Notes under the pieces: model-generated | Database searches by the model: none | The model's input: the letters and a program-made list of their open reading frames with translations, nothing else | Told to the model about the DNA's origin: nothing | NCBI GenBank assembly: GCA_963668025.2 | Contig: CAXXTH010000018.1 | Location: 288,001 to 352,000, forward strand | Direction: 5' to 3' | DNA from: Candidatus Hydrogenedentota bacterium | Lineage (GTDB): Bacteria > Hydrogenedentota > Hydrogenedentia > Hydrogenedentales > SLHB01 | DNA length: 64,000 bases | Position numbers and translations under genes: made by a program | Shown: positions 1,576-26,540 of the stretch, in pieces | How the letters are laid out: every line of letters begins with the position of its first letter | Position numbering within the stretch: the first letter of the stretch is position 1

Positions 1576-3162
1576 TTAGAAACGCAGCTTCGTTTCCGCA
1601 TATAAATAATCCGCGTCCGCATCATCAAGGCCGCCATTAAATGCCAGGCCATTGAAGTCCACGAAATTGCCCGTATCGAGGCCGGAGCCCGTGAAGAAAT
1701 GGGTCCATCCCGCGCGGAAGGTGAGGTCTTCCGAGTAATGGTAGGCCGCCCATAGGCCCAGCTCCCATCCCAGTTCCTCGTCGCTGGCGGTGGTCCAGAA
1801 AGGAATGCCCGGGGCCACGGGAACGCGGAATTGGCCCAGTTTGATATATACAGGCAAATCGAATGTGGCGAGCGCGGCGAAATAGGACGCATACAAGCCC
1901 GCTTCGATGCTCTCCATCGGATGAGCGTCCACCCCAAACTTCACCGTCCAGAAATTGCTCATCTGGCCAATATCATCCAAGACAGGGCTGTAGAGCGTAT
2001 CGGAGAAAAGCCGGTTGAAGCTGACGCTGGATTCCGGGCGGCCCAACTGGAAAAACGTCGCGAAAACATCATCCCGGTTGTCCTCGCCGTCAAAGTAGGC
2101 CCCCGAGAGGAATGCCCGAGGCTGCCAGGCAATGTCGAAGGTATAGCCTATTTCCGCATCCGCGGCCCACGCGCTATATTCCGCTTCATTATCGCCATAC
2201 AGGAATGGTTTGAACAAGAAACCTGCCCGGTCCGCATTCCCAAATTGATACGCGGCATTGGCATCGAAATCGAAAGCGCCTAAGGTTCCCGAGGCGCGCA
2301 GGGCGATGGTATGGAGATTCGTGGGATCATAATCATCCAGCCCGAGGAAATTCTCGACGCCCTCGGCCCACCACACCAAATTCGTGTCGTTCAACATGCC
2401 TGCATCGCGCAGCCACACCCAGTAAGCCTCGAACAGCACATTCTCGACGGCGCTGCATGAGGCATAAAGGCCCATGAGGTCCGTGTCGCCGTCTTCTTCC
2501 GCAATCCCGGCGTCCGCGAGCTTGGCCGTAAATCCCGAGATGGAATAGGATTCCCCGGCATAAGTGAGGCGGATCGCATCGTAGGATAGCCCGGCGAATT
2601 CGGGGCGGCATGTATTGTTGCCCAGGAGCCACCCGCCTGCAAGAACCAATTCCTGGCGGCCGATTCGGGCTTCAAGCGGCAGGCCGAACAGCTCATCCAC
2701 TTCTATATAGGCTTGGTAGAGCGAAACATCGTCTTCCGCGGAATTCTGCCGCGCGTCCGCGCCCGTAATCCAATTCGAACGAAAATCCTCGCCCCACACA
2801 TCAAAGCTGTCCAGCTCGACATGCGCGGCCACCTGGTTGGTAAAATCCGCGTCTATCCGTAGAATCGTGCGCTGTTCAATTACTTTGTAATCCGCTCCGC
2901 GCTCGCTCCAGTCATAATAACTGGTGATGGCCTGCCCTCCGATGATGTCGCCAATGGGACGGCCCACGAGCCAATTGCCCGGCCAGCGAACGCCTGCGCC
3001 CGCGAAGGCGGGCTGGGTTTGCGAATTGAACGTATTACTCCAATAATTGCCCCGGATACGGAGTTCCCCGCCTACCTGGATATTTTGGAGTTCGGCATAT
3101 GCAGGCAGCGCCACGAAACAGGCTAGTATGAACAAGGATAGCATTTGAGTTTTCCGGCGCAT
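1576..3162 (-). CDS. Alginate-export family outer-membrane beta-barrel protein
   Basis: Signal peptide MRRKTQ...AYA; GGELRIRG, LYQAYIEV, RIGRQEL motifs; C-terminal Phe; GAAGGAG RBS before ATG at 3162. Confidence 0.8.
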   Translation of the reverse strand: MRRKTQMLSLFILACFVALPAYAELQNIQVGGELRIRGNYWSNTFNSQTQPAFAGAGVRWPGNWLVGRPIGDIIGGQAITSYYDWSERGADYKVIEQRTILRIDADFTNQVAAHVELDSFDVWGEDFRSNWITGADARQNSAEDDVSLYQAYIEVDELFGLPLEARIGRQELVLAGGWLLGNNTCRPEFAGLSYDAIRLTYAGESYSISGFTAKLADAGIAEEDGDTDLMGLYASCSAVENVLFEAYWVWLRDAGMLNDTNLVWWAEGVENFLGLDDYDPTNLHTIALRASGTLGAFDFDANAAYQFGNADRAGFLFKPFLYGDNEAEYSAWAADAEIGYTFDIAWQPRAFLSGAYFDGEDNRDDVFATFFQLGRPESSVSFNRLFSDTLYSPVLDDIGQMSNFWTVKFGVDAHPMESIEAGLYASYFAALATFDLPVYIKLGQFRVPVAPGIPFWTTASDEELGWELGLWAAYHYSEDLTFRAGWTHFFTGSGLDTGNFVDFNGLAFNGGLDDADADYLYAETKLRF

Positions 3163-3328
3163 GGCGATATCTCCTTCTTCCCGCCACATGACTGGGCGTT
3201 TATGCGCCTTGCGCCACGTCGCTACCCCCGGCATTCACAAGGCGCGTGCAATACGTTAAATAAACCATAACAGAGACCTCCAAAATCGTCAAGACAGATA
3301 TCTTCTGGAAATCAATGATATGGGTATT

Positions 3329-5892: not shown

Positions 5893-6348
5893 TCATGCTT
5901 TCCGGTCTATATAGCCGGCTTGTTTTTTTTCTGGAGAACGAAATTTATCCAGCATGTTATGGCCTTTGTGCAATCCAACTAAGCCATTTTGTATGCTGAG
6001 CATGTAACGCTTGAGATCCGAGATGCTTTTTTCCCTGGCTTGCTGCAATTGCTGGTCCAGCTCAAAAGCATGCGAGGCCAGCTCCGTGATCATGGCGCGC
6101 TCTTCCACTGCGATAGTGTCGTCTTGCCGCCACTCCCGCAAGAGCAAATCAAGTTCATGTTGGAGCCCCGCCAGTATTTTGTTGTCTTTCTCCCGGCTTG
6201 CATACAGGCCTTCCAGGACGTTTTCTTCCAGCGCCATTTGCTCGATGGAGACGCAAGCCTGAAGCATGGCTTCAAAACAAGCAATGTTGCGCTCGATACA
6301 GGCGCGCATACGCGCCACTATGCTATCTGTGTTATCCATTATGCTCAT
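5893..6348 (-). CDS. Helical protein, FlgN/FliT-like flagellar export chaperone (tentative)
   Basis: 151 aa all-helical, ends GYIDRKA as in FlgN-like proteins; operon context. Confidence 0.45.
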   Translation of the reverse strand: MSIMDNTDSIVARMRACIERNIACFEAMLQACVSIEQMALEENVLEGLYASREKDNKILAGLQHELDLLLREWRQDDTIAVEERAMITELASHAFELDQQLQQAREKSISDLKRYMLSIQNGLVGLHKGHNMLDKFRSPEKKQAGYIDRKA

Positions 6349-9300
6349 CCTGTTGCCGTGGCGGCGCTATTCGATTGCGCCGTGGCTGGTTGAGGTTCCG
6401 CCAATGGTTCCGCGGTCACGGGAAGGCCGCGCCGGAGCTGTTCCGCCCTTCCATACGCCGCTTTGATACGCGCCTGCGCCGCCCATTGGGAATCGGTCTG
6501 GCCAATGGCGTCCAGCAGTGGAATGCTTGTGGCGTAGTCCTCTGTTTCGAGCACAGCGCCCGCCCGCTGGTAGGAAGCCCATTGGGCGTCCTCATCAAAC
6601 CGGCCAGAGGCTTTTTGAGCGAGGCCATATGCGTCAGCCGCGGCGCGGAAATCCCGCCGGGCGTACAAATAATCCGCCCAGGCCAGCGCGGCGTCACGAA
6701 ACAACTCCGTGGTGCAATTGCCTGCCCGTGCGTTCGTTTCAAGCTCCATGACCATAGCCTGCGCACGGGCGGCGCGGCCCGACGCCAAGTAGGCATTTAA
6801 CAGTGCGATCTCATCCTTATCGGTCCGTTCTTCCGCATAGCGCTCATGCGCCTGCTCCATATAGGCTATGCCCTGATCGGGGCTGGCTTGCAGCAAAGCC
6901 TGGCCCGCCACATTCAAGAATGAATAGGCCAGGGCCGGGTCCAGTAGATTTGCATCCACACGCCGGGAAATGGATAAGCCTTGCTCGACTGCACCGTTCT
7001 GGATGAGGGCGGCTGCCGATTGCGCCAATAATTTCGGCTCGGTTGCCACGGCGGCCACTTCTTGATATGTTTGCTTGGCTAATTCGCTGAAACCCAAATC
7101 ATGGTACAACTCTCCAAGGGCCACCTTGACGGCAAGCTGCTGGGGCCGGCCTTCCGTTAATGTGGCCAGATCCTCCAATTCCGACAGGCTCCGCCGTATG
7201 TTCCCCCGCTCATAATCCGCCTTGGCCCGCTCGATGAGCCCTTGAAAGGCTTGGGCTGTGGTGGGATATTGAACCGACAAATGCTCGTAGACTTCCATTG
7301 CCTGATCCCATTCCCCCACTCGGCGAAAATACCGGGCGGCGTCCAGCAGCAATTGAGGTGCATTAGCGCCCGCCTCGTCGGCAGCAAGCAACGCCTGGGC
7401 CGCGCCCACAAAATCGCCTGACAGCACACGCGACGACGCAAGGCTCTGAAGCACGCTGCTATCATTCGGATACTGATGGGCGGCCAGTTGAATGAGCGAA
7501 GCGGCATCGGACCGCTTTCCTTGTTTCTCGAGCACGCTGGCAAGGCGTACATACGCCTGCGGCAGAAGGGGGCTGTCTGGCATGAAGGAAAGCAGATCGC
7601 GATACGACTGCTCCGCGCGATCAAGCTGCCCATTCGCTTCATAGGCTTGGCCTAGAAGCAAATATACTTCATCCTTGCCTTCCATGGTTGTCGAGGCCGC
7701 ATCACGGTTCTCCAGCATCGAAATGGCGGCGCCGGGATTTCCCCCATCCAATTCCATGCGCGCAAGATATACGGCTGCTTGGGCGCCTATCTTGCGGTCT
7801 GGCCTGGCCTGGGCGACTTGAGTGAACAACTCCCGCGCCTTATCTGGACGCTTCTGCAACAGAAAGGCGCGGCCGAGCAGCATGCGGGCCTCATCGGCGT
7901 AAGGCGAAGTGGGAAACTGGGCCACCAGGAGCTGAGCGAATTCCTCGGCCTCGCCGCCCCGGCCCAATTCAAGGGCAAGCCGGCTGGCCTGCACCATGAT
8001 CTTATCCCGTTCTGGCGCGGCCGGATATTGCTCAATGATCTTGCGGTAAATACTCTGCGCTGTGAGAGGCACTCCCGTTTTCACATATAAGAGCGCCTTC
8101 CATTCCATGAGTTGAGGCACGCGCGGATCAGTGGAATGATGCTCGATCACTTGATCAATGGCCGCTTGAACCACATCCGCTTCCTCTTGAGTGGCGCGCT
8201 GCGGCAATGCGGCATGCATGGCTTCGACGCGCAGGAACTCCGCATCGGCTAAAAGAGGATGCTCCCGGGGGGCTTCCGGAATAGCCCGGTCCATTTCTTT
8301 AACCACATCCGCATACGCTCGGGCTTTCATGAAGCGTTTTGCATTTTCCACCGCCACGGACAAGTCTTCCTGGCCGCCCGGCATGAGTTGTTCTATTTGC
8401 ATAGCCCCGTTTTGGTATGCGGGAAGCACGGCATACAATGCCCATCCGGCCAGAACACCAACGAAAAGCGATACCGCCAATTTGGTAATTTCATGGCGTG
8501 GAAACCCGCGAAACGGATTGGGGATCAGAGGTTTTCGGAACCGCTTTTTCTTAGCGGGCGGCACTATGGCTTCCGGCCTTTCCATAAGCTCTTCATGAGG
8601 CAAAGGCGCTTTTGGAGAAGCAATTTGCACAGTGGCTGCCTGCTCCGGCTCCACCGTTTTGCCGGGGGCCGCAAAAAGATCCTTAAATTCTTCTTTGGCG
8701 CTCGCTTCTTGGAGCAGGCTGTCTAGCAATTCTTGCGAAAGCAATGCCTCATTCGAATCATCCAGAGAAACGGAGGCATACCGGTTTTCGGAGCCAACGG
8801 CTTCCTGTTCTTCAAACGGCGCGTCAATAGCGGACTCATAGGATATTTCACCCTCGGCATCTTGCGATTCCGCTTTGAATAAGGCATCTATTTCGGACTG
8901 CTCGATTATGCCTACTGGCTTATCTGAAGGCGGCGCATACGTCCATTCGTTCGGCTCATTGGCAAAGGCCCCGCCATTTTGCACTTGGGCTATGACGGCG
9001 TCGATATCGGATTGATCGGTCATGCCGGAAGGCATGCCCTCTTTGCCTATAACCTCATCGAGATTGGACTCATCCAGTGTGATATTCGAATTGATCTCTT
9101 CTAAGGCGGCATCTAGCTCCGTATCCGTCAACGCTCTCGCGTTAAATTCTTCTATATCCTCCCGCTCATCGAATTCCGCCGAGCTGGCCTCATGCTGCCC
9201 AGGCAAGCCTTTCTCGATGAGTTCATCCAGCTCATGCTGGCTCAAAAACATATCTTCTTGATCAATCTCTTCGCCTAAAAACTCATCTAGACTGCCCGCG

Positions 9301-10070
9301 GAACCACCGTCTTTTTTGGTTTCCGCAATCAACGCTTCAATGGCGGATTGATCGAGTGAAGCGCGCTCTTGTATGGAAGCTTTTTCCTCGGCGGTTTGCA
9401 CCGGCGGCGGCGGGACAGGCGCGGATGGTTTGGCGGGCTGATGGCTTGCGAACAAATCATCCAGCTCGGATTGATCTAAAAGAGTCTCGCCGTTATCGAT
9501 GAACGGAGGCGCATCGATACGTACAGGCGGAGGACTTGGCTTGGCCGTATGAGTAGGAGCAGGAGTAGCAACCGGCGCACTCCGCGCCTGGGCGATCAAG
9601 GCATCTAGTTCCGATTGATCGAGTAGCGGCGGCACATCCGCAAGATCATCCCCCTTGGCATTGGCTGGCTCAATCGTTGGGGAAGCCTTCGGTGCAGCGC
9701 GCTGCTCGAAAAGCGCGTCAAGCTCTGCTTGGTCAAGCAGCTCCGGTTCCTTTGGCGAAGACGGTGCGGCGTTCTGAGCAAAAAGCGCGTCAAGGTCTGC
9801 TTGATCGAGCAGTTCAGGAGCTGCTTCCGGCTCTGATGGCCTCGATGAGGAAGTTTCTGAATTCAAACCGGCAATAAGGGCATCGAGATCATCCTGATCA
9901 AGCAGATCAGGTTCATTTGGCTCGGGAATCGGTGATGGGGGCGGCGCCGGTTGTGGGGCTTCCGCACGCATATGGGCGATAAGCGCATCAAGGTCCGCCT
10001 GCTCTAATAAATCATCATGCTCCTCGGAATGATTCGGCTCGCCTTTGTTTTTATCGTTTGGCTCTGTCAT
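6345..10070 (-). CDS. Single-pass membrane TPR protein with acidic N-terminal LxQxxLDAL repeats
   Basis: About 12 repeats in Pro-rich N-terminus; TM LAVSLFVGVLAGWALYAVL; many TPRs (QYP...A, YLLLGQAYE). Confidence 0.85.
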   Translation of the reverse strand: MTEPNDKNKGEPNHSEEHDDLLEQADLDALIAHMRAEAPQPAPPPSPIPEPNEPDLLDQDDLDALIAGLNSETSSSRPSEPEAAPELLDQADLDALFAQNAAPSSPKEPELLDQAELDALFEQRAAPKASPTIEPANAKGDDLADVPPLLDQSELDALIAQARSAPVATPAPTHTAKPSPPPVRIDAPPFIDNGETLLDQSELDDLFASHQPAKPSAPVPPPPVQTAEEKASIQERASLDQSAIEALIAETKKDGGSAGSLDEFLGEEIDQEDMFLSQHELDELIEKGLPGQHEASSAEFDEREDIEEFNARALTDTELDAALEEINSNITLDESNLDEVIGKEGMPSGMTDQSDIDAVIAQVQNGGAFANEPNEWTYAPPSDKPVGIIEQSEIDALFKAESQDAEGEISYESAIDAPFEEQEAVGSENRYASVSLDDSNEALLSQELLDSLLQEASAKEEFKDLFAAPGKTVEPEQAATVQIASPKAPLPHEELMERPEAIVPPAKKKRFRKPLIPNPFRGFPRHEITKLAVSLFVGVLAGWALYAVLPAYQNGAMQIEQLMPGGQEDLSVAVENAKRFMKARAYADVVKEMDRAIPEAPREHPLLADAEFLRVEAMHAALPQRATQEEADVVQAAIDQVIEHHSTDPRVPQLMEWKALLYVKTGVPLTAQSIYRKIIEQYPAAPERDKIMVQASRLALELGRGGEAEEFAQLLVAQFPTSPYADEARMLLGRAFLLQKRPDKARELFTQVAQARPDRKIGAQAAVYLARMELDGGNPGAAISMLENRDAASTTMEGKDEVYLLLGQAYEANGQLDRAEQSYRDLLSFMPDSPLLPQAYVRLASVLEKQGKRSDAASLIQLAAHQYPNDSSVLQSLASSRVLSGDFVGAAQALLAADEAGANAPQLLLDAARYFRRVGEWDQAMEVYEHLSVQYPTTAQAFQGLIERAKADYERGNIRRSLSELEDLATLTEGRPQQLAVKVALGELYHDLGFSELAKQTYQEVAAVATEPKLLAQSAAALIQNGAVEQGLSISRRVDANLLDPALAYSFLNVAGQALLQASPDQGIAYMEQAHERYAEERTDKDEIALLNAYLASGRAARAQAMVMELETNARAGNCTTELFRDAALAWADYLYARRDFRAAADAYGLAQKASGRFDEDAQWASYQRAGAVLETEDYATSIPLLDAIGQTDSQWAAQARIKAAYGRAEQLRRGLPVTAEPLAEPQPATAQSNSAATATG

Positions 10071-10278
10071 AACTCCCCTGGCAGGTCCCTATTCTCACCT
10101 CAGAGCAAAAGCATAAAAACTGCGTATCTATCTTTGTGCAAATAGTTTAGCATGGACACGCCAGCTTGGCAACAAGAAAATAGGCATTTTTTTCCGCCCA
10201 GAATCGAAAACGAAGGGAAACCTCTATACCACCAATAGACCCGGCAGTATTTTCCGTTTGCACAAACCATAGCGGTGT

Positions 10279-18854: not shown

Positions 18855-21425
18855 CTATTTCTCCCCCCAAACCCGCGCGAGAGTGGCCTGGATCTTTTTC
18901 TCGAAGCGGGCGATCAGTTCGCGGTTGGCGTTCACCAGCGCCTGCTCGGCCTCGATCTCGGCGACGATGGCCTGCTGGGTGGATAGGGGCGGGAGGGGGA
19001 TTGGATACTTCTTAAAAAAACCATTATGGAAGCTTTGCACAGTAACACCGGGCTTTATGCCTTCAGCGATGATAGAAGCAGATTTTGTTTTGAGCACATA
19101 GAATAAAAAATCAGAACTCATTTTCATGCTTCTAGGTTGGAAGGCAATTAAATCCTGATTAATGCACATGGGACGTGACAGCATTGCAACTGGGAATGTG
19201 TGCTTAAGAATTCCAGAACGAACAACACAGACCACTGTCTTTGTAGGAAAGAGTTTCGTGGCGCTGCCTGAAACTGCTTCCGGTGATATATGGTCTTCAG
19301 CATCGAAAATGATGTCTGACTTCATATCTTTTGGAGAGACCCATGGAATCTCTCCAGTCCAATAGGTCTGTTTCGTTTTTGATGGCGTGCCTCCACTAGA
19401 CATCAAAAAGTGTTCTCCCAGCTCCACCATGGGCCAATCGGGGTTGATGGGGATGTGGGGGCGGTAGTGGTCGAGGACGGCGCGAGCGCCATCGATGACT
19501 TTCTGGTAACCTTCGATCTCCGCCACGATCTCCTGTTGCACCGACAACGGGGGGAGGGGGATCTTGATAGTTTCAATGTCTGATTGGTTAATACTTGGAT
19601 AAGCGCCTTTCCCACTCATGCTGATCATTTGCTCGACCGATCTATCGTGCCGAATTGCGTTGATGAGAAAGCCAGGGAGCAGTCGGTCCTTTTTTGCCCG
19701 CAGAACAGCGAAGCCTGTAGAGGCAATCGCCCGCGCAGGCACATCAGTAAGAATAACGAAAGCCTTAAGGTTTGGGCGAACTGTAGAAACTATGATGTCG
19801 TATTGCTTTACTGCTCTCCGGGCTCTGCTTGGTGCTTCCTTTGTAGCAACTCTGTTCGCGCCAAGGAATTTCCCTGTTCTGTTTTCAACGCAGGAAATAT
19901 CAATGTAGTTGAAGTAAGAGCCGGGATAGAGGCTTTCGGGAATTGCAGTATCTGAGTTAATTTCGCACACCTCAGCGAGCCTGACATGAGGGAAATGTAC
20001 CGTGGAAGCTGCCCCTTCCTTATACCGCTCTCCGCTGAGGTTGTAGTCGCCGTTTTCGGCTATTTTTGTTTTGGGCACGAGGAGGGCGCCGGGATGGGGG
20101 GCATGGGGCGCAGCGGGGAGAGAGGACGGATCGGACAGATCGGACGGATTAGACGGATGGGGCGGATGGGGTGGATGGGGCGAATGGGAGGTGATGGAGC
20201 TTAGATAGGATTTCAGAAAGGCGGCGGCGGCGGGCAGGTCGTTTTTGTCGATGGCGCGGCGTTGTGCGCCGAGGCCGTAGCCGTCGTTTTCGACTTTGAA
20301 GAAGGCGATCGTGTTGGTTTTTTTGGCGAGTGATTTGTCGAGGATGAGAATGCTGGTTTTGACGCCGGAGTAGGGGTTGAAGCAGCCCGCCGGAAGGGAG
20401 ACAACGGCGACAAGGCCGTTTTCGACGAGCATTTTACGCAGTTGTTTGTAGGCGGTCTGGCTCTGGAAGATGATGCCTTCGGGGACGATGATCCCGGCGC
20501 GTCCGTTTGGCGTAAGATGCTCGGCCATATAGTCCACGAAGAGGACTTCGCTGCGTTTGGCTTGGATCGAGAAGCGTCTATGAGGCCTGATGCCGCCTTT
20601 GGGTGACATAAACGGCGGATTGGCGAGGATGACGTCGGCGTATTCGTTCCAGCGGTCGAGGCTGGTGAGGGTGTCGTATTCGTAGATGCTCGGTTCGGGA
20701 AAGCCGTGGAGGTAGAGGTTGACGAGGGAGAGGCGCACCATGTCGGGCGAGATGTCGTAGCCTTGGAAGTTTTTCGCCAGGCGGCCTTTTTCGTCGGGGG
20801 TGAGGGTGTTGTGGCCTTTGGCGTCGGTGTTGGTGCGCAGGATGTGCTTGTAGGACGAGATCAGGAAGCCAGCGGTGCCGCAAGCGGGATCGAGGACGGT
20901 CTCGTTCTTTTTCGGGTCAACGACGTCGACCATAAAATCGATGATATGGCGCGGCGTGCGGAACTGCCCGGCGTCGCCCTGGGAGCCGAGCACCGAGAGC
21001 AGGTATTCATAGGCGTCGCCGAGGCGCTCGGAATGGTCGTAGTCGAATTCGTCGATGATCTTGAGGAAAGCGCGCAAGGTCTCGGGGTCGCGGTAGGGCA
21101 GATAGGCGTTTTTGAAGATGTCGCGGAAGAGCTTGGGAAGGCCTGGATTCTCGGGCATTTTTGTCATTGCTTCGGCGTAGAGGTTCAAGGCTTCGTGGCC
21201 GCCCAGCCCGGAGCGCATGAGTTTGGCCCAGCCGTAGCGGGCGAATTCACCGGCAAAGAAACAGCGTTTTCCGCCGAGCGCCTCGCTTTCGGCGTCTATG
21301 TCGTCCATGAATTTGTAGATGAGGGCGATGGTGATTTGCTCGACCTGTGATTTGGGGTCGGGCACTTTGCCCACGAGGATGTCACGGGCGGTGTCAATAC
21401 GGCGTTTGGTGTTGGTGTCTAGCAT
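18855..21425 (-). CDS. Fused N6-adenine methyltransferase-specificity subunit (HsdM-HsdS fusion)
   Basis: GQFRTP, DPACGTAG, NPPF; then two AT-richer TRDs each followed by IPLPPLSxQQxIVAEIE. Confidence 0.92.
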   Translation of the reverse strand: MLDTNTKRRIDTARDILVGKVPDPKSQVEQITIALIYKFMDDIDAESEALGGKRCFFAGEFARYGWAKLMRSGLGGHEALNLYAEAMTKMPENPGLPKLFRDIFKNAYLPYRDPETLRAFLKIIDEFDYDHSERLGDAYEYLLSVLGSQGDAGQFRTPRHIIDFMVDVVDPKKNETVLDPACGTAGFLISSYKHILRTNTDAKGHNTLTPDEKGRLAKNFQGYDISPDMVRLSLVNLYLHGFPEPSIYEYDTLTSLDRWNEYADVILANPPFMSPKGGIRPHRRFSIQAKRSEVLFVDYMAEHLTPNGRAGIIVPEGIIFQSQTAYKQLRKMLVENGLVAVVSLPAGCFNPYSGVKTSILILDKSLAKKTNTIAFFKVENDGYGLGAQRRAIDKNDLPAAAAFLKSYLSSITSHSPHPPHPPHPSNPSDLSDPSSLPAAPHAPHPGALLVPKTKIAENGDYNLSGERYKEGAASTVHFPHVRLAEVCEINSDTAIPESLYPGSYFNYIDISCVENRTGKFLGANRVATKEAPSRARRAVKQYDIIVSTVRPNLKAFVILTDVPARAIASTGFAVLRAKKDRLLPGFLINAIRHDRSVEQMISMSGKGAYPSINQSDIETIKIPLPPLSVQQEIVAEIEGYQKVIDGARAVLDHYRPHIPINPDWPMVELGEHFLMSSGGTPSKTKQTYWTGEIPWVSPKDMKSDIIFDAEDHISPEAVSGSATKLFPTKTVVCVVRSGILKHTFPVAMLSRPMCINQDLIAFQPRSMKMSSDFLFYVLKTKSASIIAEGIKPGVTVQSFHNGFFKKYPIPLPPLSTQQAIVAEIEAEQALVNANRELIARFEKKIQATLARVWGEK

Positions 21426-21472
21426 GGGATTTCCTTTGTGATCGGGCGGATCGGGTGGATCGGGCGGATCAG

Positions 21473-22198
21473 TCAAACATCGATGAGGCCTTTGCAATCG
21501 GGGTAGCCGGAGCAGCCCCAAAACTGTTTCCCGGCGCTTTTTCCTTTCTGCGCGGTGCGCAACACCATCGCTTTTCCGCATATAGGGCAAGCGGGAATAA
21601 CCGCAGGGGTATCGTTTTTATGGCGGTTGCGTTCGGCCAGGCGCGCGGCAGCTAATTGTTCACTATACCCGCCTTCCGTAATGAACGCCTCTTCGAGTGC
21701 GGCGATTTGCTTATCGAGCAAGTAATTGGCTTGGTGAATCAGGCAGAGCAAGGCGTTGGCGCGCATGGCAGGGTCGTCGTGTTCGAGCCATTTGGCGTAA
21801 CGGGCGAAGTGATCGGCCGGATCGGTCTGATCGGTCGGATCGGTCGGATCATCATGGTGGCGGCCGATTTGTCGGACGGCCAGCGCTTCTGGGTCATCTG
21901 GCGCCCACATGCGCAAATGGCGGTGCCGCAGAAAATCCTCGTAATCGAGCAGAAGCTCCTCGAGGCTGGCGCGCGCGACGTTGACCAATCGAAGCTCCGT
22001 CTGGGATGAGGTAGCGGCGGCGCGGCTGCCTTCCGCGATGTTCTGCCGTCCACTGCGGGCGGCCTGCACCATTTGATCGCTCATCCGGGAACGCGGCTCC
22101 AGATAGCGTTCGCAAAACCAGTATGTGGCGTCATATATAATGGTGGCTATTTGAAAACTATGCAGCTCCCGGTAGCCCCCGCTCGCTCGAATCTTCAC
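21473..22198 (-). CDS. Four-helix-bundle protein with suffix domain and topoisomerase-type Zn ribbon
   Basis: QMVQAARSGRQNIAEG, ARASLEELLLDYEDFL; CPICGKAM...FWGCSGYPDC. Confidence 0.88.
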   Translation of the reverse strand: MKIRASGGYRELHSFQIATIIYDATYWFCERYLEPRSRMSDQMVQAARSGRQNIAEGSRAAATSSQTELRLVNVARASLEELLLDYEDFLRHRHLRMWAPDDPEALAVRQIGRHHDDPTDPTDQTDPADHFARYAKWLEHDDPAMRANALLCLIHQANYLLDKQIAALEEAFITEGGYSEQLAAARLAERNRHKNDTPAVIPACPICGKAMVLRTAQKGKSAGKQFWGCSGYPDCKGLIDV

Positions 22199-22209
22199 TG
22201 CCCGGCCTC

Positions 22210-24738
22210 CTATGCGACAAATTTGTTCAAGGATACGTAATCCTTGATGTAATTTGGAATAAGGGTACGGTATTTTTCTGGGACAGCGAGATAATCACGC
22301 GAGGGAAAGCTCGCATAGGTGGCAAGTTCGGGGAATCGTTTATTCTCAACGATATGGCGCACTCGGTCGTCTGTCACATATGCTTTGAAATAGGCCTTGA
22401 TGGCCGGTATGGCTTCGGATTCCTCTGGTTTATAATCGGCGACAAATTTGGCGAACTCCTCCTCCAGTAATTCATCCTTGGACTTGAAGCCGGGAATGAG
22501 GCCAAAAACTTTCTCCAGGATTTCACGCAAAGTGAGGCGCCGATCCACGTTAGTGGCCTTGCGCAACTTATCGAGGGAATAATATTCCTCGGGCTTGTCA
22601 AAGACTTCCTGATTCACATACTCAATGACACGGTCCCACTGGCCCGCCTCGACCCAAGTTTCAATAGCGGGGTCTTTTCGGACGGTGTCCTCGAATTTCT
22701 CGAAGAACATGTGGTCCACTTTCATGCCATCGAGGCCTATTTTTTCCTCTTTGACGCTCGATAAGATATCGTCTCCGTCGTGCTCGTAGATGCCGCCGAT
22801 GACGCCACCGCCGCCAGGCTCCCTTTTTTCATGGGGTGCGGGCAGCTTGATTACTTGATCGTAGTTGTATTTCTCTTCGAAGTATTCACAATTGGCGAAA
22901 AAATCGAACATCTTGTAAGTGGTTTTGTCTGGTTCTTTCACGCTCGGCTTGATGGCGTCGTCGAAGAGTTGTTCGAGGAAATCATGTTTTCGGGTGCCGC
23001 GCCCTTTAATTTGAATGAAATCGGTCGGCGAGAAGATCGGACGGAAGAGACCGAGGTTCAGGATGTCGGGGCAATCGTAGCCCGTGGTCATCATGCCGAC
23101 GGTGACGCACACACGTGCCTTGCTGGTTTTATAGGTATCTATAAAATTTGCTGAACCGAGCAGGTTGTTGTTGGTGAAGTTGATGGTGAACTGCTGGGCG
23201 TCGGGGATCTGTGAAGTGACTTGCACGGCGAAGTCGGAATGGTATTTGCCGGGGAACATCTTGTCCGCGAACAGGTTCAGGATTTGAGTCAGCTTGGCCG
23301 CGTGATGCTGGCTGACCGCAAATACAATGGATTTTCCGATTTCGCCCGAGACGGGGTCACGCAGGGCGTGTTCGAGGAAAGTCTTGCACATCAGTTCGTT
23401 CGAAGCATCCGCGAAGAAGCGTTTCTCGAATTCGCGCTGGCTATAGGTTTCTGTATGTTCTACGCCATCACCGTCCGTGATTTCCACGAGGAAGCCCTGG
23501 TCCGATAGAAGCTGGGTCGTGATCCCCGTACGCGCGTCCACCACGGTAGGATTAATGAGGTAACCATCCTTGACGCCATCCAAGAGCGAATACCGAAACG
23601 TGGGCTGGCCGTCTTCACAGCCGAAAGTCCGGTAGGTATCCATCATGAGCCGCCGCTCATACTCGCGAGGATCCCGCGCATTCGCCTTGTCCGGCTCGAA
23701 TTTTTTCAGGTAATCCTTTGGCGTGGCGGTAAGGCCGAGTTTGTAGCCGACGAAATACTCGAAGACCGCACGTGCGTTCCCTCCGATTGAGCGATGGGCT
23801 TCGTCCGAGATTACGAGGTCGAAATCGGTGGGTGAAAAGAGCGCCTGGTATTTATTATTAAAGAGGAAGGACTGGACCGTGCTGACGACGATCTCCGCAC
23901 GCCGCCAGTCGTCACGGGTTTCTTTATAGATCGCGGTATGAAAATCCGCCGAGAGCACTCCAGTGAAGGCTTTCTTGGCTTGGTCCTCCAGTTCGAGGCG
24001 GTCTACCAGGAAAAGGACGCGCCGGGCATTGCTGGTATGAAGGAATAGCTTGATGACTGCGGCGGCGGTCAAGGTTTTGCCGGTGCCTGTCGCCATTTCG
24101 AACAGGAAACGGTCTTTGCCGTCATCGACTGCCCGCTGCAAAGCGTGGATAGCCTTGAGCTGGTATTGCCTAAGGAAGCGCAGCTTATTGGTTTGGATAT
24201 AGGCCGGGCGTTCGGTTTCGTTCTTCCACGCCGCTTCGGATTGGTAGCGAGGCCGTTGCGTAAGGACGATATAATCTTCGTCAATGTGCTCTTCGATGAG
24301 GCGTTGGGGATTCGGCGTGATTTTTTGGTATCCAGTGACGGAATCGGGAGTCGGAAATGACGTGATGAGATAGGGGTTTCCGCGCTCTAAGTCCCAGAAG
24401 TAATGCTGATTGCCATTCGATAGAATAACAAAGCGGCAGTTTTGAGACCGGGCGTACCTTCTGGCTTGTTCCTTGCCAATAAGCGGATTCTTCTCCTCTG
24501 ACTTGGCTTCGAGAACAATGAAAGGAAATCCCTTTTCGTTCAGGAGTACAAAGTCTATGTATCCTTTGGATGCCTGTTCAAAGTTCTCGCCAAGGGCGTC
24601 AACGATTTCCCGCCTGAGCATGACGCCTGGCTCGAGCTGTATGTTCGCAGGGCGGCCATTTTCAGAAAAAAACCGCCAGCCAGCCGCTTCGAGTTGTTTG
24701 TTAATCTTTATGCGCGCCGTGGCTTCTTTTTTGGCCAT
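22210..24738 (-). CDS. hsdR: Type I restriction endonuclease R subunit (EcoAI/EcoEI-like)
   Basis: N-terminal nuclease D..LEAK; MATGTGKT, DEAH, GLTATP, TGYD, QIKGRGTR. Confidence 0.92.
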   Translation of the reverse strand: MAKKEATARIKINKQLEAAGWRFFSENGRPANIQLEPGVMLRREIVDALGENFEQASKGYIDFVLLNEKGFPFIVLEAKSEEKNPLIGKEQARRYARSQNCRFVILSNGNQHYFWDLERGNPYLITSFPTPDSVTGYQKITPNPQRLIEEHIDEDYIVLTQRPRYQSEAAWKNETERPAYIQTNKLRFLRQYQLKAIHALQRAVDDGKDRFLFEMATGTGKTLTAAAVIKLFLHTSNARRVLFLVDRLELEDQAKKAFTGVLSADFHTAIYKETRDDWRRAEIVVSTVQSFLFNNKYQALFSPTDFDLVISDEAHRSIGGNARAVFEYFVGYKLGLTATPKDYLKKFEPDKANARDPREYERRLMMDTYRTFGCEDGQPTFRYSLLDGVKDGYLINPTVVDARTGITTQLLSDQGFLVEITDGDGVEHTETYSQREFEKRFFADASNELMCKTFLEHALRDPVSGEIGKSIVFAVSQHHAAKLTQILNLFADKMFPGKYHSDFAVQVTSQIPDAQQFTINFTNNNLLGSANFIDTYKTSKARVCVTVGMMTTGYDCPDILNLGLFRPIFSPTDFIQIKGRGTRKHDFLEQLFDDAIKPSVKEPDKTTYKMFDFFANCEYFEEKYNYDQVIKLPAPHEKREPGGGGVIGGIYEHDGDDILSSVKEEKIGLDGMKVDHMFFEKFEDTVRKDPAIETWVEAGQWDRVIEYVNQEVFDKPEEYYSLDKLRKATNVDRRLTLREILEKVFGLIPGFKSKDELLEEEFAKFVADYKPEESEAIPAIKAYFKAYVTDDRVRHIVENKRFPELATYASFPSRDYLAVPEKYRTLIPNYIKDYVSLNKFVA

Positions 24739-24776: not shown

Positions 24777-26540
24777 TCAGTCTGATTCCATGGCCTGAAG
24801 TTCGCGCAATTTCGCCATGAGCGCCTCGTAGGCCGCCGGATTCGCCACCTGCTTGCGGAGGCCATCGGGGAGATAGCGCATGTCAGTGCATTCGGCCACG
24901 GCGGCGAGGATTTGCAGTTCGTGGGCGGATTCACGGGAGCTGCGGAAGTTTTGGATGACTTCCGACAGGAGCGGCGCATCGAGCGCCGAGCCGCGCAGGA
25001 GCGATTCCCGGCGCGCGCGCATGAGGACGCCTTCGATGTCTGCCCCGCTCAAGGGGGGAACGTGGCTCAGGTCCGGTAAAGACTCGGGCGTGAGGCTGAG
25101 CTTGGCCTTCTTTCCCATGGCCATGAACATTTCGCGCAATTCATCGGGCGTTTGGGGATAAAACAGGGGGATGTGCTCCTCGCACCGGCCCTGGCGTTTA
25201 AGGTCCACGGGCAGTAAGTCGGGGCGGCACGTGAGGAGAAACCACACGACCCGACCACGGTAGCTGGTGTCGCCCATTTGGCTGGCCACTTGGGCGAATA
25301 CGCGCGCGCTCGTGCCGGAGTCGCCCGACGCGCCCCGGTTGCCCAAGGCGGCGTCGGCCTCGTCGATGATGACGGCCACGGGACCCAGTTCGCGCACCAC
25401 GGAGAGGATGCGCTCGAGGTTGGCCTCGGTTTCGCCCACGTATTTGCTGCGGAAGTTGCGTATCATGACGCACGGGATGCCCGCGCTTCCGGCGTAGCAC
25501 ATGGCGAGAAAGGTTTTGCCGACGCCCACCGGGCCGCAGAGCAAATAGCCCATGGGCACGGCGTCGAACTGGCCGTCGCGCATGAGCCGGGCATCGCTCG
25601 AAAGGCGCTCTTTCGCCGCCGCGAGGCCCGCGACCATATCGAGGTTGTATTTAGGCTCGATGAATTCGAGCAGCCCAGGACATTGGGCTTCCATGAGCCG
25701 CTTCTTCACCTCCATGAGACGCACATCGCTCACACTAGGCCCTTCGGCGGGCGCGGGCGGCGCATCCGCGCCGGTTTTCACCACCTCGCTGCTGGCGGGC
25801 CCGGGCTGGCGCGCGGGGGCGCGCAACAGGCGCATCATGTTGTCGAGGCTCACGAGCGTAAGCCCGGCGCTAAGCGAAGCGAGGCGTTCCGCGTCGGGGG
25901 CGAAATCAGCAAATTGGTTCTGGACGAAGGCGAGGCGTTCGCCTCGGTTCGGCATGCGCAGTTGCACCTCTTCCGTGTGGCCGCTCTGCACAAGGGCGGG
26001 ATGGAGCCGCGCCAGGCTCTCCGTCATGAGCACGAAGATGATGTTTACACGGCGGATGACTGGGCTTCGCGCCCAATTCAGGAACGTTGCGAGATGTTCC
26101 CCGGCCCGGTCATCGGCGGGACAAATGAGGTCGGCGTAATCGAACAAGATAGCCGTCTTGCGCGTCCTGCTCTCTTCGCCCACGAGCAACAGTGATACGA
26201 GCCGGTCGATGAGGCGCAGGCTTTGCGTGGGGTCGCGCGGCAGTTCCGCATCCTGGCCGAGGAGCCGCCCGAGGAGGCTGTTCATCTTTGTCAGGCGCGC
26301 AGGGTCGCCCGCCGTGAAGGGCCGCAAGCCCCTGCCCATGTCGTAATGCAGCACGAGATCGTAGTTGCCGAAAAGGCGGCGCGCCAGAAAATCCGACAGC
26401 GGTTCAGCCGCGTACTTCGCGCCATCCGAACTGCCCGCCACATCGGCTACATTGCCATGCAGCAAAAACATGCTCGCGCCGCCGGAGAGATAGGCGTCCC
26501 GCAATTGCTCCGCCCAAATGGGCCATATACGCTCGATCAT
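24777..26540 (-). CDS. Classical AAA+ ATPase (degenerate N-terminal module + active C-terminal module)
   Basis: GPVGVGKT Walker A, SKYVGE pore loop, IIDE Walker B, LKRQGR SRH. Confidence 0.9.
   Translation of the reverse strand: MIERIWPIWAEQLRDAYLSGGASMFLLHGNVADVAGSSDGAKYAAEPLSDFLARRLFGNYDLVLHYDMGRGLRPFTAGDPARLTKMNSLLGRLLGQDAELPRDPTQSLRLIDRLVSLLLVGEESRTRKTAILFDYADLICPADDRAGEHLATFLNWARSPVIRRVNIIFVLMTESLARLHPALVQSGHTEEVQLRMPNRGERLAFVQNQFADFAPDAERLASLSAGLTLVSLDNMMRLLRAPARQPGPASSEVVKTGADAPPAPAEGPSVSDVRLMEVKKRLMEAQCPGLLEFIEPKYNLDMVAGLAAAKERLSSDARLMRDGQFDAVPMGYLLCGPVGVGKTFLAMCYAGSAGIPCVMIRNFRSKYVGETEANLERILSVVRELGPVAVIIDEADAALGNRGASGDSGTSARVFAQVASQMGDTSYRGRVVWFLLTCRPDLLPVDLKRQGRCEEHIPLFYPQTPDELREMFMAMGKKAKLSLTPESLPDLSHVPPLSGADIEGVLMRARRESLLRGSALDAPLLSEVIQNFRSSRESAHELQILAAVAECTDMRYLPDGLRKQVANPAAYEALMAKLRELQAMESD

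Follow-up and report, generated by a model that had tools for sequence, protein, structure and literature searches.

A membrane-anchored TPR protein with an array of FliM-like EIDAL motifs encoded beside a sigma54 regulator pair in Hydrogenedentota

The present study concerns a gene of a Candidatus Hydrogenedentota bacterium whose product, P0001, is a membrane protein that carries many copies of a peptide known from the flagellar switch. The gene lies on the minus strand of a 64,000-nucleotide (nt) stretch of DNA, referred to as the window (assembly GCA_963668025.2, contig CAXXTH010000018.1, positions 288,001 to 352,000). Ahead of a single transmembrane (TM) helix and a domain of tetratricopeptide repeats (TPR), P0001 displays 11 motifs that resemble the EIDAL peptide of FliM and FliY. 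A flagellar role of P0001 is well supported; it rests on the motif, co-distribution with flagellar genes, the operon, and the presence of arrays on motor proteins. We tentatively read P0001 as a membrane-tethered, multivalent dock for phosphorylated CheY (CheY~P), and consider the probability of this reading to fall a little short of even. The motif is known, and the P0001 protein is new.

The first-pass annotation of this DNA described about 12 CheY~P-binding motifs in P0001. All 11 strings that it quoted are present in the translation, and the count is 11 (Table 1). A Q-anchored pattern matched ten copies in the N-terminus (motifs 1 to 10) and one stray site at residue 632 within the TPR part. 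The motifs start 24–75 residues apart, and the linkers between them are rich in Pro, Ala, and Glu. Among 2000 shuffles of the N-terminal 530 amino acids, the Q-anchored pattern was matched 0.06 times on average and twice at most versus the ten matches observed, and a shorter core pattern had 11 matches, whereas shuffling gave 0.32 on average and never more than 2. The first pattern had no match beyond P0001 in 66,401 six-frame stretches of at least 50 amino acids from the whole 6.1-Mb genome. A tight FliM-like pattern was also applied to 36,518 open reading frames (ORFs; 5.09 million residues) and was found in three proteins: FliM, the adjoining FliY-like protein, and P0001 (seven matches). 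Therefore, the motif in this genome is confined to the flagellar switch proteins and P0001.

The match in FliM is located at the true N-terminus (MADILSQEEVDLLL; peptide ILSQEEVDLLL), and the FliY/FliN-like protein of 332 amino acids encoded beside FliM matches with ALDQSELDDIL, to which motif 6 of P0001 is nearly identical. In the FliY/FliN-like protein (G000:C12:73911-74909, minus strand), this EIDAL-like peptide is mid-chain, at residue 208 of 332, and sits just ahead of the SpoA domain rather than at the N-terminus; the same site in the FliY-like protein of a related genome, G066, reads ELSPDEMNDILSG.

When the repeats were aligned with the EIDAL peptide of FliM-N and FliY, they agreed position by position, as the first-pass annotation had proposed. 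The consensus of 216 copies, collected with the Q-anchored pattern ahead of the TM helix in 32 members of the P0001 family, is [LP]-L-[SD]-Q-x-[DE]-L-D-A-L-[IL]. Positions L2, Q4, L7, D8, A9, and L10 are all kept, which is conservation beyond mere acidity, and the Asp at position 8 is retained in 202 of the 216 copies. The aligned residue in FliM is Asp12, which in Escherichia coli pairs with CheY K119 through a salt bridge according to bioRxiv 10.1101/781468; the same paper gives K91, Y106, and K119 of CheY as the surface that binds FliM-N. The binding of CheY to the N-terminal EIDAL motif of FliM, and the sporadic occurrence of full or degenerate EIDAL motifs in FliN and FliY, are described in PMC6946799.

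The remainder of P0001 has a simple layout. The ORF proposed in the first-pass annotation is open over its entire length on the minus strand and translates to 1,241 amino acids, and the acidic, Pro-rich N-terminus, the single TM helix, and the TPR region described there were all recovered. Residues 1–530 contain 116 Asp and Glu, 37 Lys and Arg, and 57 Pro, with a net charge of -79. One strongly hydrophobic segment was found (residues 531–549, mean hydropathy 2.21; next best 1.21). Nine Lys and Arg residues are present in the 25 amino acids preceding the TM helix and none in the 25 following it, and a hydropathy scan detected no signal-peptide-like hydrophobic segment at the N-terminus. For these reasons, the positive-inside rule predicts a cytoplasmic array and a periplasmic TPR domain, and not an extracytoplasmic N-terminus. 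In an AlphaFold2 single-sequence model of residues 1–560, the mean predicted local distance difference test score (pLDDT) was 51, in line with a disordered chain. The sole helices before residue 500 sit on or beside motifs, with all 11 motifs coinciding with a short helix, and the only confident element of the model is a TM helix at residues 525–553 (block pLDDT 72–87). An ESM Atlas search with residues 1–560 gave no usable match.

Sixteen Pfam TPR-type families match P0001 between residues 696 and 1113. The NCBIfam model TIGR02795 (YbgF-type TPR) scored 96.3 bits summed over four stretches (cut-off 90.1), which identifies the type of TPR unit but does not establish orthology to CpoB; the CpoB model itself, NF008068 (profile length 263, for a protein of approximately 260 amino acids), scored 26.4 bits against a cut-off of 383. 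YbgF-type TPR units occur in periplasmic proteins and fit a periplasmic place for this domain. A sequence search of the PDB with the TPR part returned only OGT and designed TPR proteins, i.e., generic TPR, and the FlcA model NF047371 scored 28.9 bits, below its cut-off of 300. Pfam and NCBIfam detected no LysM or FimV domain in P0001. Pfam matches were limited to TPR families, with none to FliM (PF02154) or SpoA (PF01052); judged by its domains, P0001 is not a switch protein, as it carries no FliM or SpoA/FliN domain.

A word-index search with P0001 found 31 full-length relatives (29–45% identical, E 9e-178 to 4e-89) together with two unrelated TPR proteins. Every relative with a source name is from Candidatus Hydrogenedentes or Hydrogenedentota, and the P0001 family was found only in Hydrogenedentota. 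All 32 members, including P0001, have an acidic N-terminus, one TM helix, and approximately 680 amino acids of TPR. Each carries 2–15 copies of the core pattern ahead of the TM helix (median 7.5), a number higher than in all 300 shuffles for 31 of the 32 members. The core pattern occurred 264 times in the 15,460 N-terminal residues of the family versus 22 times in the 21,844 C-terminal residues. Over the 150 residues that lead up to the membrane, the order of elements is constant: a copy resembling ISQDMIDALIA comes first, then a box resembling GSENLAAAA, the last LLSQxDLDxLI copy, and a basic patch. The box separates the last two EIDAL copies of 26 of the 32 members, with the pattern xEN[LFVIA][AE][AS][AG] and GSENLAAAA as its typical form; in P0001 it is degraded to GSENRYAS (GSEN at residues 426–429, window 8784-8795).

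Table 1. Features of the P0001 gene, its motif array, and its operon in the window.
Feature	Residues of P0001	Position in window	Strand	Basis or remark
EIDAL-array/TM/TPR protein gene (P0001)		6345..10070	-	ORF, Pfam and NCBIfam scans, 31 full-length relatives
Acidic, Pro-rich, mostly disordered N-terminal region, predicted cytoplasmic	1-530	8481..10070	-	charge, AlphaFold2
Motif 1, LLEQADLDALI	21-31	9978..10010	-	pattern; predicted helix 21-36
Motif 2, LLDQDDLDALI	56-66	9873..9905	-	pattern; predicted helix 59-70
Motif 3, LLDQADLDALF	87-97	9780..9812	-	pattern; predicted helix 90-98
Motif 4, LLDQAELDALF	111-121	9708..9740	-	pattern; predicted helix 114-121
Motif 5, LLDQSELDALI	149-159	9594..9626	-	pattern; predicted helix 152-160
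Motif 6, LLDQSELDDLF	197-207	9450..9482	-	pattern; predicted helix 201-208
Motif 7, SLDQSAIEALI	238-248	9327..9359	-	pattern; inside predicted helix 227-251
Motif 8, FLSQHELDELI	275-285	9216..9248	-	pattern; predicted helix 278-287
Motif 9, MTDQSDIDAVI	350-360	8991..9023	-	pattern; predicted helix 353-364
Motif 10, IIEQSEIDALF	388-398	8877..8909	-	pattern; predicted helix 391-399
Motif 11, divergent, LLSQELLDSLL	443-453	8712..8744	-	conserved last motif of family; predicted helix 446-457
Basic juxtamembrane patch, KKKRFRK-type	507-530	8481..8552	-	Lys and Arg count, sequence
Single TM helix	~531-552	8415..8480	-	hydropathy, AlphaFold2
Predicted periplasmic TPR domain, ~690 amino acids	553-1241	6348..8414	-	Pfam TPR families; side by positive-inside rule
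151-amino-acid all-helical protein P0002, weakly FlgN/FliT-like		5893..6348	-	start overlaps P0001 stop by 4 nt
Soluble PAS-HisKA-HATPase histidine kinase P0003		4708..5889	-	Pfam; 3 nt after P0002
REC/sigma54-AAA+/HTH_8 response regulator P0004		3329..4678	-	Pfam, NCBIfam; 29 nt after kinase
Sigma70-like promoter candidate (TTGCCA, 17 nt, TAAACT, TG before second hexamer)		10144..10172	-	consensus match only

The distribution of P0001 follows that of flagellar genes. We searched 135 Hydrogenedentota genomes for orthologues of the TPR domain, FliM, and FlhG, which were found in 102, 107, and 109 genomes, respectively. The TPR domain was present in 100 genomes with FliM and in two without a FliM match (G097 and G126), and it was not found in seven genomes with FliM and 26 without a FliM match. 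Both G097 and G126 have FlhG, and so does G120, one of these 26. Consequently, the TPR domain was found in 102 of the 110 genomes that have at least one of FliM and FlhG but not in any of the 25 that have neither, and a search for orthologues in non-flagellated genomes found none. These 25 genomes comprise 21 from family f3, two from f8, one from f13, and G134 from f1, which is 100% complete. Within f3, the TPR protein was found only in G024 and G025, which are also the only two with FliM and FlhG. Since the genomes are related by kinship, we counted this as a joint absence in four families and not as a statistic.

P0001 heads an operon with P0002, a kinase (P0003), and a regulator (P0004), and no terminator-like site was found on the minus strand from 10070 to 3329. 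Among 20 loci from 20 genomes, the kinase was directly downstream in 18 (45–68% identity) and the regulator was adjacent in 16 (59–74% identity), with one further fragment; the TPR domain across these loci is just 23–41% identical. In 16 of these 18 loci, an ORF of 143–167 amino acids separates the TPR gene from the kinase gene. The order of TPR gene, small protein, and kinase was retained even in the two most distant loci, in which the TPR domains are 23–25% identical. The regulator gene is located elsewhere in family f2 and in G024.

The operon had been described as a flagellar-type sigma54 operon with an FlgN-like protein and an FlrB/FlrC-like pair, and each of these labels held in part. 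The operon encodes a sigma54 activator. However, its own promoter candidate is sigma70-like, and no GG-N10-GC sigma54 site was found in the 200 nt upstream, with no pattern match within 790 nt; a candidate sigma54 promoter heading the operon was rejected because its GG...GC spacing is one base short. Therefore, "sigma54 operon" should be read as an operon that encodes a sigma54 activator. Regarding P0002, seven of 17 orthologues weakly match FlgN (PF05130; best E 6.8e-5) and two of 17 match FliT (PF05400; best E 3e-4), whereas the window copy matches no Pfam family at E <= 0.01 and neither FlgN nor FliT at E <= 1. The structural model of P0002 (alignment A3) has three long helices with a pLDDT of 86, and a Foldseek search of the PDB found nothing at E <= 0.001, with FliT entries at ranks 10 and 38 (E 1–2). 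"FlgN-like" is thus a weak label for what may be a helical protein of this type.

The kinase contains a PAS domain and lacks a hydrophobic segment (maximum hydropathy 0.86), and the regulator, of REC/sigma54-AAA/HTH_8 type, carries GSFTGA. An orthologue of P0004 at E <= 1e-120 was present in 99 of the 135 genomes (G122 among them solely via a 46% identical paralogue) and in none of the 25 without FliM and FlhG. Domain composition and this flagellum-linked distribution agree with the FlrB/FlrC label. However, the curated models for flagellar regulators were not passed: all scores were below cut-off, with AtoC the best (520.3 of 714 bits); FlbD scored 416 of 750 and FlgR 343.6 of 750. Judging from distribution and pattern matches, the best reading is that the pair is flagellar and probably FlrBC/FlgSR-like.

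The genome contains rpoN and 42 strict TGGYAYN5TTGCW sites. By pattern match, two of these precede rod-protein domains by 191 and 666 nt, and a looser sigma54-type site precedes a hook-type gene by 69 nt. The two strict sites at the rod genes read TGGCATN5TTGCT and are located at G000:C17:507366 and G000:C23:322943, upstream of two rod-gene regions. Sigma28-type sites (TAAA...GCCGATA) were found in three regions upstream of flagellin-family genes (G000:C17) and upstream of one hook-type gene. These pattern matches suggest a sigma54-then-sigma28 flagellar hierarchy in Hydrogenedentota, in which the kinase/regulator pair is the best candidate activator of the rod genes with sigma54-type promoters.

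In one genome, the operon lies near flagellar genes. In G066 (family f10; L130, G066:C17:10000-28000), the strand that encodes it also carries, 7.5–13 kb upstream, fliM, fliY, and the genes for a DUF6115 protein, an FliK-like protein, and a sigma factor of the sigma70 family that is probably FliA. Genes for a peptidase M28 and a GAF kinase intervene. We regard this proximity as only loose linkage.

Arrays of this kind are also present on other proteins, from other organisms. A HMMER scan of 1.84 billion representatives with P0001 residues 1–530 found 16 proteins at E <= 0.001, of which five belong to the P0001 family and 11 do not; a Pfam scan covered ten of these 11, with P0050 left out. P0040 combines approximately 14 EIDAL copies with the SpoA domain of FliN (PF01052, E 1.1e-20), and P0051 (287 amino acids, source name FliN/FliY), the single match of a search of shorter proteins, has four copies ahead of a SpoA domain (PF01052). 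P0041, P0043, and P0044 consist of an array, one TM helix, and an end of approximately 100 amino acids. The end of P0043 matches FliL (PF03748) over nearly the whole model (21 bits, E 4.9e-4, below cut-off). In P0045, the array is accompanied by a TM helix and faint TPR signals, and P0042, P0046, P0048, and P0049 are giant acidic repeat proteins (570–1,593 amino acids) that share the motif and have no known domain. Given the arrays on FliN and FliL-like proteins, we regard the array as a module that recurs on motor proteins. P0044 was also observed to begin with a zinc ribbon.

A word-index search with the FliL-like end of P0043 returned only itself in the near length range, shorter proteins being outside the search. 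PF03748 has no match in the flagellated genome studied here, and among this genome and 20 relatives it was matched in seven of 21 at only 23–37 bits. Such weak and sparse matches indicate that the model is of little use in Hydrogenedentota, and FliL there may be either very divergent or missing.

As to the partner of P0001, its location in the cell, and its effect on switching, we infer the following. P0001 would be a bitopic inner-membrane protein of the flagellar system, produced from one operon with the FlgN/FliT-like helical protein and the soluble kinase/sigma54 regulator pair. The TPR domain would anchor it to a site in the envelope, which may be the basal body or its vicinity, and the cytoplasmic array would capture several CheY~P molecules at once. 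As a membrane-tethered store or sink, P0001 may thereby shape the amount of CheY~P that reaches FliM. We favor CheY~P as the ligand because the arrays are also present on FliN and on stator-side FliL-like proteins, which are parts of finished motors, and because a store or sink with many sites is well suited to a signal protein that is small, abundant, and monomeric.

A suitable CheY is encoded in the genome. It has 119 amino acids, its gene lies beside those for CheA and CheW, and it is 70–88% identical across most of its matches in the phylum. In NCBIfam, the CheY model is the one that it matches best, with a score of 106 bits that does not reach the cut-off of 189. By a model offset of +7, its Tyr99 and Lys112 correspond to E. 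coli Y106 and K119, and both are invariant in 27 orthologues. In the phylum search, 33 CheY candidates were scored per genome, so absences mean little. A complex prediction of this CheY (alignment A1) with P0001 residues 50–80 gave values of 0.29 and 0.26, under the mark of 0.32, and carries no weight either way on binding.

Several observations weigh against a CheY~P dock. Within Hydrogenedentota, the FliM peptide reads SQ[ED]EVDLLL versus ELDAL[IF] in the array copies, and this systematic difference between EVDLLL and ELDAL[IF] may mean another affinity or partner. Since EIDAL is also the FlhG-binding site of FliM/FliY in the literature cited below, the motif alone cannot name the partner. 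Copy number per protein varies from 2 to 15. The operon partners form a transcription system and are not chemotaxis genes, and Pfam scans of the neighbors revealed no che or motor/flagellar gene beside the operon within the window. The TPR domain has no specific likeness to known motor scaffolds, judging from the FlcA score and the generic PDB matches given above, and the FliL label of the array proteins, which is below the Pfam cut-off, is weak. Lastly, eight genomes with FliM or FlhG have no copy of the gene (G091, G106, G114, G120, G131, G038, G041, and G043); these are 66–95% complete, and a missing match in an incomplete genome is weak evidence of absence.

A broader version of this proposal is that membrane-tethered EIDAL arrays represent a separate and recurrent class of flagellar component, which would have arisen several times (on the TPR protein, FliL-like proteins, and FliN) and would add tens to hundreds of docking sites for CheY~P, or perhaps FlhG, next to the motor. 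In Hydrogenedentota, the occupancy of these sites or a periplasmic state sensed by the TPR domain would feed the kinase/sigma54 regulator, and thus couple chemotaxis or C-ring assembly to flagellar gene expression. We consider this extended version doubtful as it stands.

The main rival to a CheY~P dock, which we regard as unlikely, is that the array docks the MinD-like ATPase FlhG, holding it at or releasing it from the membrane. P0001 would then set the number or place of flagella and couple C-ring assembly to sigma54-dependent expression, similar to the partner switch among FlhG, FliM-N, and FlrA and to HubP in polar flagellates. According to bioRxiv 10.1101/2022.04.21.489128, FlhG binding in Shewanella requires the EIDAL motif of FliM, and this motif suffices for it; the review PMC12826062 links FlhG to FliM-N, to the sigma54 activator FlrA/FleQ, on which it acts, and to the membrane landmark HubP. 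The genome has a MinD-type gene directly after flhF and flhA. FlhG is also present in 101 of the 102 genomes with the TPR protein, and in 16 of the 20 genomes sampled, the array gene shares its operon with a gene for a sigma54 activator. However, the adjacent regulator possesses a receiver (FlrC/FleR/FlgR type) and is not of the FlrA/FleQ type acted on by FlhG, and arrays fused to FliL-like domains would be located at the stators of completed motors, a place in which no role of FlhG is known. Moreover, the FlhG candidate was named by a likeness to the MinD family that is below cut-off and by gene position.

We consider it improbable that P0001 is instead an accessory sensor, whose periplasmic TPR domain would sense an envelope or assembly cue and whose tail would control the soluble kinase or dock the receiver of P0004 in place of CheY. 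The kinase has no membrane segment and therefore needs an input partner, and the TPR gene, small protein, and kinase stay together in 18 of 20 genomes, including the two most distant, with genes that overlap or lie 3–29 nt apart. The CheY face that binds FliM-N is a common interaction surface across the receiver domain family, and includes the three residues K91, Y106, and K119 named earlier. However, a 1:1 sensor-regulator pair needs one docking site, which leaves 11 copies unexplained; arrays are also present on FliN and FliL-like proteins without such a kinase partner in view, and the regulator gene is separate in f2 and G024.

Just as improbable in our estimate is a generic acidic repeat, in which the helices would be a flexible acidic spacer or landmark (in the style of HubP/FimV or of a ParP-binding CheA linker) and the EIDAL likeness would be convergent: the region is strongly acidic and of low complexity, and the giant acidic proteins without a flagellar domain share the motif, but such a region is hard to square with the position-specific conservation from L2 to L10, with a tight pattern that occurs in this genome only in FliM, the FliY-like protein, and P0001, with the recurrence of the array on FliN proteins, and with the lack of a LysM or FimV domain in P0001.

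Returning to a CheY~P dock, we compared P0001 with known systems. At each position, its repeats follow the pattern of the FliM/FliY peptide (LSQxEIDALL), down to the Asp that pairs with CheY K119, and they are likewise predicted to form short helices in a disordered, predicted cytoplasmic segment. In contrast to FliM and FliY, P0001 has 11 copies rather than one, on a TM/TPR protein without a FliM or SpoA domain. P0040 and P0051 are similar to P0001 in their tandem EIDAL-like copies with Pro/Ala-rich linkers; however, their SpoA domains place these arrays on the C-ring, whereas the array of P0001 would hang from the inner membrane. The C-terminal peptide of CheZ, which is present in a single copy on a phosphatase, forms an acidic amphipathic helix and binds CheY at the face used by FliM-N.

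HubP and FimV are bitopic proteins with a long acidic cytoplasmic repeat region, and HubP has a periplasmic LysM domain at its N-terminus. P0001 is predicted to be opposite to this in orientation and domain order, has no LysM or FimV match, and has EIDAL-patterned repeats. It resembles them in being membrane-anchored and linked to flagella, in that HubP belongs to a flagellar placement system according to PMC12826062. Similar to FlrB/FlrC, FleS/FleR, and FlgS/FlgR, the operon encodes a soluble PAS kinase and a REC/sigma54-AAA/HTH regulator with a flagellar distribution, in a genome with rpoN, sigma54-type pattern matches at rod genes, and sigma28-type pattern matches at flagellin genes; P0004 differs in scoring below the curated cut-offs for FlgR and FlbD. 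No FlrBC, FleSR, or FlgSR pair is known to have an upstream EIDAL-array gene, and none was described in the literature that was searched. PflB of Campylobacter, FlcA of spirochetes, and SflA of Vibrio, a TPR membrane protein, are proteins of flagellated bacteria with large periplasmic TPR domains. P0001 differs from these in showing generic TPR likeness only, and to our knowledge, no cytoplasmic EIDAL array is known for PflB, FlcA, or SflA.

The literature that was searched, mostly outside subscription journals, contained no description of tandem EIDAL arrays or of the P0001 family. The EIDAL peptide is the point at which CheY~P signaling and number control by FlhG both touch the motor, and it has been treated as a single-copy element of FliM/FliY. 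The P0001 family is phylum-wide and flagellum-linked, places 2–15 copies on a membrane anchor, and is encoded with a sigma54 pair. This suggests an unrecognized layer of control, in which a switch-binding protein is buffered, concentrated, or sequestered at the membrane. If binding proves true, the family would provide a defined system for how multivalent docking shapes motor sensitivity or flagellar number, and a first functional handle on motility control in Hydrogenedentota, for which the literature searched gave no study.

The genes that neighbor the operon in the window include an NAD-kinase-like gene and genes for an amidase, a methyltransferase, a DUF2225 protein, and a rhodanese. An Alginate_exp-type outer-membrane porin gene (1576-3234, minus strand) begins 94 nt after the regulator and has its own sigma70-like site at 3292-3264; it was considered as part of the module and rejected, as no such gene was found next to the operon at any of 20 related loci. 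The window also encodes a type I restriction-modification system (18855-24738, minus strand), which consists of a fused N6-methylase/specificity gene (911 amino acids) and an HsdR-type helicase (842 amino acids), and is followed by an AAA ATPase gene at 24777-26540.

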